Origin: Chthonomonadales bacterium
GTDB taxonomy: Bacteria > Armatimonadota > Chthonomonadetes > Chthonomonadales > Chthonomonadaceae
Direction of reading: 5' to 3'
NCBI GenBank assembly: GCA_038217285.1
Contig: JBBQPO010000043.1
Location: 1 to 28,976, forward strand
DNA: 28,976 nt
The position numbers and the translations under genes are program-made. Below are positions 10,607 through 16,142 of the stretch, piece by piece (position 1 is the first letter of the stretch; each line of letters begins with the position of its first letter). The notes under the pieces are model-generated. The model did no database searches. It was given only the letters and a program-made list of their open reading frames with translations, and was not told where the DNA came from.

Positions 10607-11935
10607 TCAGGAGGAGGCGATGAGTTCCACCGTATGAGGCTTGGGGGCGTCTGCTCTGGGTATGTCCTTTAAAACACCCAATTCCTGTTGGTCCAGATCG
10701 TTCATTTTGGTCTGTATTTCCGGCGTAATCTGCTTTCCGCCCGTGGAGTTAGGCACCTGCAGTACCCGCCACTTCTGGAAATGCAGGTCGTTGTGACGGC
10801 GGATCATCGCGAGCAAGGCCTTCGCCTGCTGATTTGGCCCCAGCGCGAGAATTCCCGCCAGATCGACTCCGCTCTGCAGTTGTTCCCGCGATACCGTGCC
10901 CATGTCCGCCCCGTCTACTTTCAGTGCGTAGCTCGCAGCAGGAAGGTTTGTCAGCTTTAGCTGATATCGGTTCAGAGCCTGTTCGGTATCGGTCACACCG
11001 AGCATGAGCAGCGTATCCTTGTTCTTGTCGGGATCCCGATCCATTGGCCACGGCAACGCACCGTCGGTATGCGTAAAGGCGATTCGCTTCGGCGTGACGC
11101 TCAGCCCGCTGATTTTGCTGCCAAGGCTCTTCACGACGTTGCCGGTCACTCCATCGATCTCGATATCGGCAACGGTATCAGGCGCATTCCAGGCTTTCAG
11201 AACGGCGGCGGCCATAAGCACATGGCCACCCGGCCCGGGATGAACCCGGTCGCGAATGACCTGGGTCGAGAGATCGGCGTCTACCGAATGCGCACGAGCC
11301 AGCGCGGCGACGAGCGGAACATTCGTGTCGGCAACCGTCAGACCGTACTCTTTGCCCAGTTCCCGCACCGCCTCGCCGTAGGCCGTCAGGGTAGAGTTAT
11401 ATCCGCCCAGGAAACCAGCAGGCCGAGTGACATCGTCGTAGGCCGAAGCGGTCAGCAGCGTGATGCGCACCCCTGGCAGCTCTTTTACCAGCCTGTCGAG
11501 AATATGGCGATATCCACGAACATAGGTGTCGAATATACCCTGGTCGAAGGCCCGATAGCTCCCATCGTTCATGCCCAGACAGATCGTGACGACATTCGGC
11601 TTGTAGACGAAGACATCGCGGTCGAGGCGCAGATCGATGGGGCCTCCTCCGCCGCCGCCGACGCGATCCCCACCCCATCCTGAGTGGATGAAGGTAAAGT
11701 GCTTTTTCGGGAACCGGCTCACGCAGTACGACTCGATGTAGGTCGTGTAGAGCCGCTGATCCGTGATGCTGTCACCATAGAATACGACTCGGTCATTGTT
11801 ATGGAGATAGAATCCCTTGGATGCATTGGTCGTATGCGCCCTCTTGCCTTGGGCACGTATCGCAGACGGAGTTGTGCCGAATAGCAGGCCGACCGCCAGC
11901 AGGCCCAGAAGCGCGGCCCTTCTCGTTGATCTCAT
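10607..11935 (-). CDS. Secreted SGNH/GDSL hydrolase (esterase) with C-terminal extension
   Basis: Block I GDSIT, block II G (SGWGG), block III GMND, block V DRVHP. Signal peptide. SD aaggag before ATG 11935. Confidence 0.88.
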   Translation of the reverse strand: MRSTRRAALLGLLAVGLLFGTTPSAIRAQGKRAHTTNASKGFYLHNNDRVVFYGDSITDQRLYTTYIESYCVSRFPKKHFTFIHSGWGGDRVGGGGGGPIDLRLDRDVFVYKPNVVTICLGMNDGSYRAFDQGIFDTYVRGYRHILDRLVKELPGVRITLLTASAYDDVTRPAGFLGGYNSTLTAYGEAVRELGKEYGLTVADTNVPLVAALARAHSVDADLSTQVIRDRVHPGPGGHVLMAAAVLKAWNAPDTVADIEIDGVTGNVVKSLGSKISGLSVTPKRIAFTHTDGALPWPMDRDPDKNKDTLLMLGVTDTEQALNRYQLKLTNLPAASYALKVDGADMGTVSREQLQSGVDLAGILALGPNQQAKALLAMIRRHNDLHFQKWRVLQVPNSTGGKQITPEIQTKMNDLDQQELGVLKDIPRADAPKPHTVELIASS

Positions 11936-11966
11936 TGTGTGCTCTCCTTCGATGCGTAACTTATGC

Positions 11967-13337
11967 CTAAACGACTCGGGGGTCTTCCCCGGTCTCTCCA
12001 TCGAGAATACGGCGCTGGATAAAGTCGGTGGTTACCTCGCCACGCCGGAAAAAAGCATTGGCGAGAATACGGCGCTGGAAACCGATATTGGTTTTGATCC
12101 CCGTGACCTCCATCTCTGAGAGCGCACGCTGCATGCGGGCGATGGCTCCGGCCCGCGTCTTGTCCCACGCGATGACCTTCGCCAGCAGAGAATCGTAGTA
12201 CGAGGGAACTTCGTAGCCGGGATAGATGTGTGTATCGACTCGAACGCCATATCCGCCTGGCAAAATGACTCGATCGATGCGACCGGCATTGGGCGAGAAA
12301 TTACGATCCGGGTCTTCGGCGTTGATCCGACACTCGATCGCGTGCCCTTCCCATCGCACCTCTTTCTGACTGAAGGGGAGTTTCTCACCCGCTGCCACCC
12401 GAATCTGCAACTTCACCAGGTCTATATCCGTTATGGCTTCGGTAATGCAGTGTTCCACCTGCAGGCGTTTATTCATCTCCAGGAAGAAGAAGTCGCCGCG
12501 TTTGTCCACCAGGAACTCGACGGTCCCCGCGTTGGTATAGTTGACGGCCTGCGCGGCGCGCACCGCCGCGTCGCCGATAGCGCGCCGTTGCGCCGCTGTC
12601 AGAATCGCGGCAGGGGCCTCTTCCAAGACTTTCTGATGCCGTCTCTGCACCGAGCAGTCGCGCTCCCCGAGGTGAACCACATGGCCATGCTCGTCGGCGA
12701 TTATCTGGACCTCGATATGGCGAGGCTCTTCTACGAATTTTTCGATATAGACATCGGGGTTGCCGAAGGAGGCCGCTGCTTCTGCCTTGGCCATATCAAG
12801 CTGCCTGGGCAGCTCCTCGTCGTTCTGCACGAGACGTATGCCGCGCCCGCCGCCACCGTTCGAGGCCTTGATCAAGAGCGGATAACCGGTCTTCTGCGCG
12901 AACTGAAGGGCCTCCTGAACGCTCTGCACTGCCGTTGTTCCGGGAACGACCGGCACGCGCGCCGCGCGCATGGTCTCGCGGGCTGCGGCCTTGTCGCCCA
13001 TTTTGTCCATAGAGGCCGCCGACGGCCCGATAAACTTCAGGCCGCAGGCTTCGACCGCCATGGCAAAACTGGCGCGTTCCGACAGAAAGCCGATGCCGGG
13101 ATGAATGGCATCGGCTCCGGTGATCTCAGCGGCGCTTATAATGTTGGGCGCATGGAGGTAGCTATCGCGGGGAGGCGGTGGCCCGATACAGACCGCTTCG
13201 TCCGCCCACTGCACAGCCTGAGAATCGGCATCGGCAGTGGAGTGTACGACGACAGTCTTGATACGGAGTTCTTTGCAGGCACGAATAATACGCACAGCGA
13301 TTTCGCCGCGATTGGCGATCAGGATCTTATTGAACAT
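11967..13337 (-). CDS. accC: Biotin carboxylase (acetyl-CoA carboxylase BC subunit), divergent at some conserved sites
   Basis: KILIANRGEIA, MGDK, GGGGRG, ERDCSVQRRHQK, EMNKRLQVEH, RINAED, YYDS. Confidence 0.93.
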   Translation of the reverse strand: MFNKILIANRGEIAVRIIRACKELRIKTVVVHSTADADSQAVQWADEAVCIGPPPPRDSYLHAPNIISAAEITGADAIHPGIGFLSERASFAMAVEACGLKFIGPSAASMDKMGDKAAARETMRAARVPVVPGTTAVQSVQEALQFAQKTGYPLLIKASNGGGGRGIRLVQNDEELPRQLDMAKAEAAASFGNPDVYIEKFVEEPRHIEVQIIADEHGHVVHLGERDCSVQRRHQKVLEEAPAAILTAAQRRAIGDAAVRAAQAVNYTNAGTVEFLVDKRGDFFFLEMNKRLQVEHCITEAITDIDLVKLQIRVAAGEKLPFSQKEVRWEGHAIECRINAEDPDRNFSPNAGRIDRVILPGGYGVRVDTHIYPGYEVPSYYDSLLAKVIAWDKTRAGAIARMQRALSEMEVTGIKTNIGFQRRILANAFFRRGEVTTDFIQRRILDGETGEDPRVV

Positions 13338-13349
13338 TCACCGTTCCAT

Positions 13350-13736
13350 CTATTGAAATTTTTCGTGCCCTGGGTAGGGACAGTGGACCTCGCCGGTGAT
13401 CAGATCATAGACATAAGGCTGATGTCCGACCGGACAAGAGAGCATTTCTGAAGGCAGTTTCAGCTCTTGCAGCGAGGCAGGAAACTTTGTGTCGGTATCG
13501 CCGGCCTGGGCCGCCAGAATGGCCAAGTGTACCTGATGAACGTTGTTGATGCACTCGGTATCGTGCGCCCGCTCTATCGGATTATGGGCCTTGCCGGGAG
13601 GAGCGTTCTTACTGTGCCCGAACAACACATTGTAAGAAACGGCGCTCAAAATGACGATAATGACCATCACAACGAGGATCTCGATCAGCGAAAAGGCACG
13701 GTGGGCGCCTGCGTGGCGGCTGGAATCAACGTTCAT
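13350..13736 (-). CDS. Prepilin-type (class III signal peptide) pilin/pseudopilin with three Cys and a terminal His
   Basis: Short basic leader, A|FSLIEILVVMVIIVIL with E5. ECINN, SCPVG, VHCPYPGH. SD aggggag. Confidence 0.85.
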   Translation of the reverse strand: MNVDSSRHAGAHRAFSLIEILVVMVIIVILSAVSYNVLFGHSKNAPPGKAHNPIERAHDTECINNVHQVHLAILAAQAGDTDTKFPASLQELKLPSEMLSCPVGHQPYVYDLITGEVHCPYPGHEKFQ

Positions 13737-13754: not shown

Positions 13755-14192
13755 CTACTCTGTGGCAGGCCTTATCGTGAAGAGGGTATGACCGTATTCG
13801 ACGGGATGACCATCTTCGATGAACACATCCACCACGACCCCGTTCGTCGGCGACGTCAGATCCGTCAGCAGGCTGACTGCCTGGATCGTCCCGATCTTCT
13901 GTCCTTCCTTGACTTTCGCGCCCAGGCCGACCATCGGCTTGATATGGCGAAAGACGCCGACCAGAGGAGCGATGACGGTAATATCCTCCAGAGGGCCAGG
14001 CGCGGACGGTTCCGACATCTCTACGTCGGTCATATACTCGCCACCGGACGAATCGTAGGCCACCAGCGCCGTCGATTTCGGCACCCGATTTCGGCGAAGG
14101 GTTACTCTGGCATCCCCCTCGCGCAGGGTCAATTCGCTGATCCTCGCGTTCTGCATCAGCGCGATCAGACGCTCCAATTCGGAGACATCCAT
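13755..14192 (-). CDS. accB: Biotin carboxyl carrier protein-like protein lacking the biotinyl-lysine motif
   Basis: AccB N-terminus (MDVSELERLIALM…ISELTL), APLVGVF, SPTNGVV…EDGHPVEYGHTLFTI. IQAVSL in place of IEAMKM. Confidence 0.8.
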   Translation of the reverse strand: MDVSELERLIALMQNARISELTLREGDARVTLRRNRVPKSTALVAYDSSGGEYMTDVEMSEPSAPGPLEDITVIAPLVGVFRHIKPMVGLGAKVKEGQKIGTIQAVSLLTDLTSPTNGVVVDVFIEDGHPVEYGHTLFTIRPATE

Positions 14193-14265: not shown

Positions 14266-15480
14266 TCAGATTTTGATTTTGAACATCGTATATTCGAGCA
14301 GGCGCTGTGCCCATGTCATCAGCACCAGCGTGAGGCAGACGATGAAAATGACTTCGATGGGCATGCTGCCGGCGATCTCTTTCGTCATGTCCACCGAGGA
14401 AGCGCCGTTGAACGTCACCAGACCCACAAGGCGGTTCAGGACCATCAGGGCGGAGCCGATCAGTTGGCGCAAGTTCTCGAACTCGAAGATGACCAGAAGC
14501 GGCACGAACAACGTGACCGGCGCCGAGAGAAACTGGTACTTCTGACGCTGGTGCTCATTATAGATCACGCAGTTGTTGCAGCGCTGCCGTTTCTGCTGTG
14601 CGGATAAGTGCGGATTGGTCGGTATTCGTACACCGCGCGGCCCAACACGGGTCGGAATAGAGACTTTTTGCTCTTCCGCATGTTTGCTCAAGATATCGCC
14701 GATGGGAACGAATCCCGACTGCTTATTGAGCGGCTGCGTCTTTTCCGGATCGTCGGGACCGGCACCGCCCATCGCGAGCAGAATGATATTCTCTTCGCAC
14801 ATGCAGCCGACCCGCTCTTTCCAGCACTTTGTTTTGGCATGGAAGATGGGACATCGAACTCGAACGCTTTCCCGGCAGAACGGAAGCTCCCAACACTTCG
14901 CCAGTGCTCCGATCACCGGCAGCTTCCGCTCGGTCCGCGCGGCGTCTTTGCCGAAATTCAGATTGGCGATGTCGCGATGCCTGCTGTTGAAGATCTTGCC
15001 GTAAAGCGTTTTGACCGCCAGCAGAACGCCGGGTACCCCGATGATGTAGGCCATCATCTGGATCTCTTTCAGCGACGCCTTCGACGCGTCGCCGCTCATC
15101 AACTTCGCCGACTCGGCGCTGAACAGAGCCCCGATAATGAACTGCAGGCCGAACGCCAGAAACGCGGCGACCAGAAGGTAGATCACCCCGAGCGCTTCCA
15201 CCTGCATAAAAATCAATCCGCCGGTCACCACCGTCACTAGCAGGCTGATATTCAACCATTGAGACAGGGTTGTGATGGTCTGCAAGGCCGCCGCATGATC
15301 GGCGGCGGACATACCGGCGACGTCCACGAGTTTGCCGGAGAAGAGCCCCCACAAAAGCCATACTGTCAGCAGAATCGTTGGGATGAGCGACAGTTGAAAC
15401 ACCTTGCTGAGGATGTCCACCGCTTTGTCGCTCAGAAAACTGTCGGAGCTAAGGTCCACCTTAGGACGGTTGATGCGCAC
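14266..15480 (-). CDS. Polytopic membrane protein with Cys-rich (two-CW-like) soluble domain
   Basis: About 4 N-terminal TM helices, CWELPFC…CP…CW…CMC…CNNC, about 2 C-terminal TM helices. Confidence 0.75.
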   Translation of the reverse strand: MRINRPKVDLSSDSFLSDKAVDILSKVFQLSLIPTILLTVWLLWGLFSGKLVDVAGMSAADHAAALQTITTLSQWLNISLLVTVVTGGLIFMQVEALGVIYLLVAAFLAFGLQFIIGALFSAESAKLMSGDASKASLKEIQMMAYIIGVPGVLLAVKTLYGKIFNSRHRDIANLNFGKDAARTERKLPVIGALAKCWELPFCRESVRVRCPIFHAKTKCWKERVGCMCEENIILLAMGGAGPDDPEKTQPLNKQSGFVPIGDILSKHAEEQKVSIPTRVGPRGVRIPTNPHLSAQQKRQRCNNCVIYNEHQRQKYQFLSAPVTLFVPLLVIFEFENLRQLIGSALMVLNRLVGLVTFNGASSVDMTKEIAGSMPIEVIFIVCLTLVLMTWAQRLLEYTMFKIKI

Positions 15481-15575: not shown

Positions 15576-16142
15576 CTACTTCACGCGCTCAAGGTATCCA
15601 TCGGTTCGGGTGTCTACTTTTACCTTGTCTCCGATGTTGACAAAAAAGGGAACGTTGATCATCGCACCGGTTTCGAGTTTCGCAGGCTTGGAGCCGCCGG
15701 AGGCGGTATCGCCCTTGACACCCGGATCCGTATCGATTACTTCGAGTTCTACGAAGATTGGGACTTCTGCACCGAGGATCTTCTCGTTGTACTCCACGAC
15801 CTGCACTTCCATGCCGTCTTTGAGATACTTGATGGTGTCCCCGAAGGTGGACGCAGGAACCCCGACCTGATCGAATGTCTGTGGATCCATCAGGAAGTAT
15901 TCTCCATCCTGGTGGTACAGAAACTGCATAGGATGACGATCAAGAATCGCCTGCTCGACCTTTTCACCGGCATTGAAGGTCTTATCCACCACCCCGCCCG
16001 TGCGCAGGTTTCTCAGTTTGGTGCGCATCACTGCTCCACCCTTACCGGGCTTGTGATGCTGGAACCAGACGATGGTGAATATTTCGGTATCAAGCAGGAT
16101 CGAAACCCCGTTCTTGAAATCCGAAGTGTCTATTTTCGGCAC
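15576..16142 (-). CDS. efp: Translation elongation factor P
   Basis: HHKPGKGGA loop, TDPGVKGDT, KPAKLETG, VDTRTDGYLER. SD aggagg before GTG. Confidence 0.97.
   Translation of the reverse strand: MPKIDTSDFKNGVSILLDTEIFTIVWFQHHKPGKGGAVMRTKLRNLRTGGVVDKTFNAGEKVEQAILDRHPMQFLYHQDGEYFLMDPQTFDQVGVPASTFGDTIKYLKDGMEVQVVEYNEKILGAEVPIFVELEVIDTDPGVKGDTASGGSKPAKLETGAMINVPFFVNIGDKVKVDTRTDGYLERVK

Follow-up and report, generated by a model that had tools for sequence, protein, structure and literature searches.

What does a biotin carboxyl carrier protein (AccB, also BCCP) do when the lysine that would carry biotin is absent? The question is raised by a gene, here called pB, located at positions 13755-14192 of the minus strand of contig JBBQPO010000043.1 (GenBank assembly GCA_038217285.1) from a Chthonomonadales bacterium. 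The whole stretch analyzed, 28,976 nucleotides, is referred to as the window. The organism is given as a soil/sediment bacterium of the Armatimonadota (family Chthonomonadaceae), and its assembly (G000; 459 contigs) is 95% complete. The open reading frame (ORF) encodes a 145-residue BCCP/AccB paralog that has neither the biotinyl-lysine nor the thumb loop. The explanation that we favor, with slightly better than even confidence, is that pB is a biotin-independent partner of biotin carboxylase (BC, AccC), resembling the BADC proteins of plants and independently arisen in bacteria. Five observations lead to it: there is one biotin-dependent carboxylase in the genome, a canonical carrier is encoded elsewhere, pB is linked to accC, the surface predicted to face AccC has been kept, and the Lys has been lost repeatedly in genes that are under selection. 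Taken together, these observations argue that the function of pB is biotin-free.

The complement of nucleotides 13880-13872 reads gca gtc agc and encodes A105, V106, and S107. The hairpin of pB is thus Q104 A105 V106 S107 L108 where BCCPs have E-A-M-K-M, and the position of the biotinyl-lysine is occupied by codon 107, AGC (Ser; 13872-13874). Without a Lys at this site, biotinylation of the canonical hairpin is impossible as judged from the sequence. Family alignments place a thumb deletion of five residues between I84 and K85 (13938-13943). The BCCP profile TIGR00531 spans the full length of the protein (residues 1-141 pair with positions 1-155 of 156) at 71 bits, below the curated equivalog cut-off of 115.2, which was exceeded in only 7 of 14 control genomes. 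The score of PF00364 (Biotin_lipoyl) was 39.8 bits, above the gathering score of 22.1. A lipoyl carrier (GcvH or the lipoyl domain of an E2 protein) was considered and rejected: the GCV_H model gave 15.8 bits against a cut-off of 22.2, the E2 lipoyl models stayed far under their cut-offs, and the hairpin has no Lys. A profile made from pB and 29 relatives matched the E. coli BCCP chain 4hr7_B over profile positions 1-144 (E = 3.7e-27), with a five-residue gap exactly at the thumb loop and with the N-terminal segment of pB aligned to residues 21-53 of that chain. The initial annotation had described an AccB N-terminal segment on a biotinyl-domain scaffold, an EAMKM motif that reads QAVSL at 13872-13880, and the absence of the thumb loop after VGxF (VGVFRHIKPMV); the profile matches, the direct reading of the codons, and the gap relative to E. 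coli BCCP bear out this description. In source databases, close relatives of pB are labeled 'biotin carboxyl carrier protein'.

The AlphaFold2 model of pB (mean predicted local distance difference test, pLDDT, 79) consists of three parts. The N-terminal segment (residues 1-33; 14094-14192), also delimited by the alignment with E. coli BCCP, contains a helix at residues 3-15 and a beta-hairpin at residues 20-33 (strands 20-25 and 28-33). It is followed by a linker that is disordered over residues 39-55, and by a C-terminal barrel-sandwich domain of the biotinyl type (residues 70-145; 13758-13985), which is predicted with confidence (pLDDT >90 over residues 71-140). The top Foldseek matches of this domain were Arabidopsis BCCP1 (9a87) and E. 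coli BCCP (1bdo), and TM-scores against BCCP domains, normalized to the target, were between 0.81 and 0.92. No signal sequence was seen on direct reading of the protein, and no nucleic-acid-binding motif was seen among its Pfam and NCBIfam profile matches.

The initial annotation had proposed a search of the genome for a second, canonical accB. Such a gene is present on another contig of G000 (C24:20206-20664; L001:1483-1989). It encodes a protein of 168 residues with a thumb (YRSGKPGDPP) and an EAMKI hairpin, and its score against TIGR00531 was about 107 bits (106.6-107.1), just under the cut-off of 115.2. The gene is unlinked to accC and adjoins a homoserine dehydrogenase-like ORF. Five other long ORFs with PF00364 matches were detected in G000; four of them have lipoyl-type DKA/DKD hairpins, and the reading of the fifth is unreliable. 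A single match to PF02785, the accC gene of the window, represents biotin carboxylase, and one accD-accA pair is present. As found, G000 encodes one biotin-dependent carboxylase and one canonical carrier, plus pB. A second carboxylase that would use pB was looked for, and none was found beside this accC and accD-accA pair. No member of the BPL/LplA/LipB family (biotin ligase, lipoate ligase/transferase) was detected in the 95%-complete assembly; a match was found in all 25 relatives searched, and the copy that was tested (G015) scored as BirA-type. The missing gene in G000 is probably an assembly gap. Loss of the Lys due to a missing biotin ligase was rejected as an explanation, because the relatives have a ligase and the canonical EAMK BCCP has been retained.

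The closest named records to pB come from metagenome-assembled genomes (MAGs) of the Chthonomonadaceae and Chthonomonadales. A pB match was detected in 40 of 41 genomes of the order (G000 included), most of which have two BCCP-like genes, and the pB profile matched 200 of 201 genomes of the phylum, nearly all of them at least twice. A search of a protein atlas with pB returned only Armatimonadota clusters, annotated as 'BCCP family' or hypothetical. The window protein was aligned with the best match from 29 relatives in the order (n = 30). All 30 proteins have the thumb gap, also relative to the genome's canonical BCCP. The Lys is kept in 18 of the proteins and replaced in 12, by Arg (4), Asp (3), Ser (2), Asn (2), or Gly (1). 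Invariant residues are V78, G79, G118, E132, and L137. The PVEYG motif (residues 130-134; 13791-13805), part of the predicted contact with AccC described below, is near-invariant: E132 does not vary and P130, V131, Y133, and G134 are at least 90% conserved. The same level of conservation (at least 90%) was observed for L9, E20, T22, R29, and T31 in the N-terminal segment. VG and PVEYG are near-invariant in the Lys-less members too.

Outside the order, the pB-type match was taken from the first 80 genomes listed for the phylum, a sample that is ranked and not random; 41 of these proteins have kept the Lys and 39 have replaced it (Gly 24, Arg 10, Thr 2, Ser 1, Asn 1, Cys 1). Some proteins of this sample keep a thumb-length loop; the deletion is general in the order and not in the whole phylum. 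Among the best 150 representatives taken from a library of 1.84 billion proteins (135 at E <=1e-30), 145 are single-domain proteins. Of these, 22 have no Lys: with the thumb scored by loop length, 20 of 106 that are thumbless and 2 of 39 that are thumbed. The canonical carrier accompanies pB throughout. All 21 Chthonomonadales genomes that were checked, the 12 with a Lys-less pB among them, encode a thumbed BCCP with EAMK. A thumbed AMK copy was found for 24 of 25 further loci in the phylum; one locus (L258) had no match under the filter used. The 24 include 5 of 5 genomes of a genus with AMGLMN in its pB and 7 of 7 of a group with DALGV. None of the 45 copies read from the canonical BCCP clade has lost the Lys. 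The 110 pB genes read showed no interruption by a frameshift or stop. A single TAG was flagged inside the pB match of two genomes of one genus (G167:C1:180064-180474 and G126:C10:60326-60736; L155, L156); it probably lies at the edge of the match, since ORF reading gave intact Lys-bearing proteins.

The history of the Lys was followed on a tree of 103 pB sequences, built with the Lys column left out. At least 12 changes between Lys and non-Lys states are required on this tree. With 19 residue changes, the Lys column comes only 34th in conservation among 131 columns. By parsimony, the median column has changed 29 times; for V78 and G79 the number of changes is zero, for E132 one, and for G134 and L137 two each, and the columns of PVEYG range from 1 to 13. 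A working carrier would have the Lys as its most conserved column, and the rank observed here therefore argues that the Lys is dispensable in pB. In the sequences compared, the pB family has a facultative Lys that has been lost many times, instead of a fixed Lys-less state. Which of the paralogs came first was not judged from a quick tree search of BCCPs (155 columns, with long-branch warnings). That tree puts the canonical copies together with thumbed BCCPs from other phyla, and pB is tied to ordinary accB by synteny and by the PVE(Y/F) motif.

How did the Ser codon of the window arise? Four congeners have QAVKL, with AAA or AAG (Lys) at codon 107, and the change to AGC in this lineage amounts to two bases. 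The initial annotation had counted several substitutions in the motif. This holds relative to the EAMKM consensus; the change specific to this lineage is only that of Lys to Ser, the congeners being QAVKL already. Among 20 genus-level proteins fetched from a protein collection, 19 have QAVKL and one (P0001) has QAVSL. P0001 comes from another assembly, is 96% identical to the window protein, and has Ser at position 107. Contigs from runs of two other studies (X2 and X4, ~97% identical) have AAC (Asn) at codon 107. A further run, X1, was left out of the independent contigs, as it may be the window's own source. An assembly or sequencing error, which had been thought unlikely from the start, was rejected on the basis of the Ser in P0001 and the Asn in the X2 and X4 contigs. 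These codons suggest a path from Lys (AAA/AAG) through Asn (AAC) to Ser (AGC) in single-base steps. Between the X2 contig and the window, the pB domain differs by six synonymous and two non-synonymous changes. If the events occurred in this order, the Lys-less state would have survived another replacement, with conservation of the remainder of the domain.

Ratios of non-synonymous to synonymous substitution rates (dN/dS) were estimated by the pairwise method of Nei and Gojobori. The window pB gave values of 0.05-0.15 against the four congeners (dS 0.6-4.0), and the canonical copy gave 0.11-0.19. Two wholly Lys-less clades gave medians of 0.13 (11 genes, 54 pairs) and 0.17 (12 genes, 31 pairs), rough values with dS at 1.3-1.8 and near saturation; the mixed Lys-bearing set gave 0.33. 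By these ratios, Lys-less copies of pB are under purifying selection. The question of selection on the Lys-less motif, raised by the initial annotation, thus has a divided answer: Lys-less relatives are constrained, and the Lys-less state is unfixed in close orthologues, most of which keep the Lys.

What would such a protein bind? A two-chain model of pB and AccC was calculated from alignments with 18 rows for AccC and 30 rows for pB. The interface score (ipSAE) was 0.68, versus 0.00 for the best of three controls; the mark used by the tool for this score, which the model passed, is reached by 116 of 157 solved complexes and by 2 of 215 mismatched pairs. At least 75% of the contacts were common to the runs, and the pLDDT of the partner was at least 66. 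The predicted interface comprises residues 77-80, 105-106, 108, 130, and 132-134 of pB and residues 34, 49-53, 64-69, 71-73, and 98 of AccC. Invariant or near-invariant residues make up 6 of the 11 interface positions of pB, versus 21 of 145 positions overall (hypergeometric p = 0.0013). By this likeness, pB still appears to resemble a BCCP that binds BC. The binding of AccC, the direction of any effect on the enzyme, and the regulator or decoy role towards biotin carboxylase that the initial annotation had suggested are inferences.

The gene neighborhood points to the same partner. The initial annotation had placed pB in the accB position, and the locus agrees with this: efp lies upstream and accC downstream, with one 128-residue ORF between. 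The minus-strand order is efp (15576-16142; elongation factor P, with all three EF-P Pfam domains), mem (14266-15480; a 404-residue membrane protein with eight conserved Cys), pB, pil (13350-13736; the 128-residue ORF, with a prepilin-type N-terminal methylation motif; PF07963, 28.1 bits, and TIGR02532), accC (11967-13337; biotin carboxylase, TIGR00514, 676.7 bits), and a GDSL-type hydrolase (10607-12001 in its longest ORF reading). The genes from efp to accC are separated by 95, 73, 18 (pB-pil), and 12 nucleotides (pil-accC), and accC starts 417 nucleotides downstream of pB. From this spacing and from the conserved order, co-transcription of the row headed by efp and reaching to accC is probable; a scan of the row for promoters and terminators gave counts no higher than in shuffled sequence. 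Among 31 Armatimonadota loci from named genomes, 27 have accC downstream of pB, 3 have no accC within 6 kb, and 1 is incomplete. By tblastn, pil is located between pB and accC in 19 of these 31 loci, and mem is usually upstream of pB. In loci outside the Armatimonadota the order is usually efp-accB-accC or accB-accC without mem and pil, and the BCCP is thumbed and has AMK; efp is found upstream of pB-type genes in many phyla.

The neighbors themselves have some unusual features. No Pfam or NCBIfam match was found for mem, which is assigned to no family and is recognized by its synteny in the Armatimonadota; its homologues in the protein atlas are only hypothetical proteins of this phylum. The protein is multi-pass, with a Cys pattern of CW-x4-CR-x6-C-x8-CW-x4-GC-x-C followed by RC-x2-C-IY-EHQRQKY. 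The pil product also has a Cys/His pattern at its C-terminus, and for a pilin-like protein that is exported the row is an odd site. In its longest reading the GDSL-type hydrolase overlaps the end of accC by 35 nucleotides; the true start may lie downstream at ~11938, as residue 22 is a Met and a stretch resembling a signal peptide comes after it.

Our proposal is that pB is a non-catalytic BCCP paralog, probably co-transcribed with accC, in which a flexible linker joins the N-terminal segment to a domain of the biotinyl type. Its contact with biotin carboxylase would be made by the hairpin together with the invariant VG and PVEYG motifs, which form one face. With a biotin-free role the hairpin Lys can go, as it would have done here through Asn to Ser. 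Carboxyl transfer would be carried out by the unlinked, thumbed EAMK BCCP. By filling BCCP sites on AccC, pB would serve in scaffolding or assembly, or else would tune acetyl-CoA carboxylase (ACC) as a competitor. Where the Lys is kept, pB may additionally be biotinylated.

The same observations can be read in other ways. One is that pB is slowly decaying as a redundant second BCCP, a thumbless ACC carrier whose Lys was lost neutrally on the way to a pseudogene, the loss in this species being recent and without a new function. Two BCCP genes for one carboxylase are redundant, a conserved ESMK hairpin persists in roughly half of the family, and the Lys in 19 of 20 genus-level proteins makes the loss a young one. 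What decay would not lead one to expect is the absence of any frameshift or stop among the 110 pB genes read, the existence of Lys-less clades of many genomes at dN/dS 0.13-0.17, and the near-invariance of VG and PVEYG in proteins that have lost the Lys. In the window's own lineage, two successive replacements (Asn, then Ser) were accompanied by almost exclusively synonymous changes in the domain. We therefore regard decay as unlikely. Recruitment outside ACC is another explanation: pB would work with EF-P, mem, and pil, and its barrel-sandwich would be only a protein-binding module. This would agree with the conserved efp/mem/pB/pil order across the Armatimonadota, with the phylum-restricted mem and its unexplained eight-Cys motif, and with a Lys-less homologue in the Ktedonobacteria that keeps efp, and not accC, as its neighbor. 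However, the efp-accB-accC linkage is widespread where the BCCP is ordinary, which makes the efp neighborhood inherited rather than new. Export would be expected of a prepilin-type protein, but pB carries no signal sequence, and the complex model favors AccC, the sole partner that was modeled. Such a recruitment seems distinctly unlikely to us.

A role in the control of gene expression has also to be weighed. The N-terminal segment of E. coli AccB has a proposed role both in BC binding and in autoregulation of the accBC operon. In analogy, pB might sense the levels of AccC or BCCP and control, without biotin, the transcription or translation of the row from efp to accC. The conservation of L9, E20, T22, R29, and T31 in a segment that aligns with E. 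coli BCCP would fit such a function, as would the fact that pB stayed by accC when the gene for the catalytic BCCP moved. Yet the most conserved residues of pB, in VG and PVEYG, are C-terminal and not N-terminal, no nucleic-acid-binding motif was seen, and the scan for promoters and terminators stayed at chance level. We consider this role improbable; it is moreover compatible with AccC binding and not exclusive of it.

Several points weigh against a biotin-independent partner of AccC. With the E. coli BC-BCCP complex already solved (4HR7), the pB-AccC model may have passed by recalling that structure, and the conserved N-terminal segment lies outside the confident predicted interface. Approximately half of the family keeps a conserved ESMKLM hairpin, and these members may be second functional carriers; the Lys-less members could then have another role or none. 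From the comparison with congeners and with the contigs of other studies, the loss of the Lys is recent in this species, and pairwise dN/dS cannot isolate the branch after the loss. Pairs that include the pB of G000 gave 0.15 (with G003) and 0.11 (with G001), higher than the 0.07 of the G003-G001 pair, and the near saturation of dS in the Lys-less clades adds to the roughness of the selection estimates. Finally, the Ktedonobacteria homologue without Lys is located by efp without accC, and linkage to accC is thus not universal.

More tentatively, and with somewhat less than even confidence, we suggest that the ACC of Armatimonadota, and probably that of Ktedonobacteria, has two BCCP-type subunits, a catalytic carrier and an operon-encoded, biotin-optional BC partner that would be a convergent bacterial counterpart of BADC; mem and pil might connect this subcomplex with the membrane, or with signaling by redox state or metals. 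If this is true, evolution can repeat the 'BADC-isation' of a duplicated BCCP, and the pB family is a natural experiment on what a BCCP domain does besides carrying biotin. There is a consequence for annotation as well: pB genes would count as functional accB in metabolic reconstructions. Cultured relatives make pB testable, Chthonomonas for pB itself and Thermogemmatispora and Ktedonobacter for the analogous protein. The BCCP family and the BADC-like logic are already known; what is new is their occurrence in bacteria, across a phylum, with a facultative Lys. To our knowledge, non-catalytic BCCP-like subunits are otherwise restricted to plant plastids (BADC). A description of a bacterial Lys-less BCCP paralog was not found in the full-text literature searched, which leaves most subscription journals outside its coverage; a paper on the ACC of Chloroflexus and a preprint on the mycobacterial LCC proved to have no bearing on the subject.

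How does pB compare with known systems? Ordinary AccB/BCCP of the E. coli type (1BDO, 4HR7) shares with it the length, the three-part architecture, the N-terminal segment, the PVE(Y/F) motif, and the fold of the C-terminal domain, and pB is likewise located between efp and accC, as such genes are in many phyla. It differs by Ser for the biotinyl-Lys, Val for the preceding Met, a thumb shortened by five residues, and the 128-residue ORF inserted between pB and accC. The canonical BCCP of G000 belongs to the same family, has a similar N-terminal segment, and presumably has the same partner AccC. In contrast to pB it has the thumb, EAMKI, and LVQAG in place of PVEYG, and the two proteins are only 24% identical.

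Lys-less homologues were also found beyond the Armatimonadota. In Ktedonobacteria (Thermogemmatispora, Ktedonobacter, Ktedonospora) and in two other Chloroflexota MAGs (loci L066:6001-6456, L075, L089, L092, L100, L109, and L117), an efp-adjacent BCCP homologue of the PVEYGQ type has Asn or Gly in place of the Lys. Unlike pB of the Chthonomonadales, the Ktedonobacteria protein keeps a thumb-length loop and has no accC nearby; in Thermogemmatispora the next genes are xseA and xseB. A second BCCP with the Lys, of the AMK(V/S)FNE type, is encoded elsewhere in 2 of 2 Ktedonobacteria genomes checked (Thermogemmatispora and Ktedonobacter). The alignment is too short to resolve the kinship of these proteins with pB of the Armatimonadota. 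BCCP homologues of Elusimicrobia (L064, L067, L068, L073, L076, L078-L080, L082, L088, L098, and L103) have an unusual VEVGKDFK hairpin and a short thumb; accC is ~1.7 kb downstream, and the branch in the tree is very long.

The closest functional parallel is offered by plants. According to bioRxiv 10.1101/2024.11.04.621944 and PMC11889953, BADCs are Lys-less BCCP homologues that were first described as negative regulators and are also said to mediate the interaction of BC with BCCP; they are described there as regulators or mediators in the assembly of the BC-BCCP subcomplex. The likeness to BADC1-3 is that pB, too, is a BCCP homologue without the biotinyl-lysine, present beside a true BCCP and a single biotin carboxylase. 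The differences are that pB is bacterial, that the Lys is facultative in its family, with the at least 12 changes of state given above, and that the family is thumbless and occupies the accB slot of an operon. The losses of the Lys map inside the Armatimonadota and BADC is known to us by description only; on this basis pB probably originated independently of the plant BADCs.

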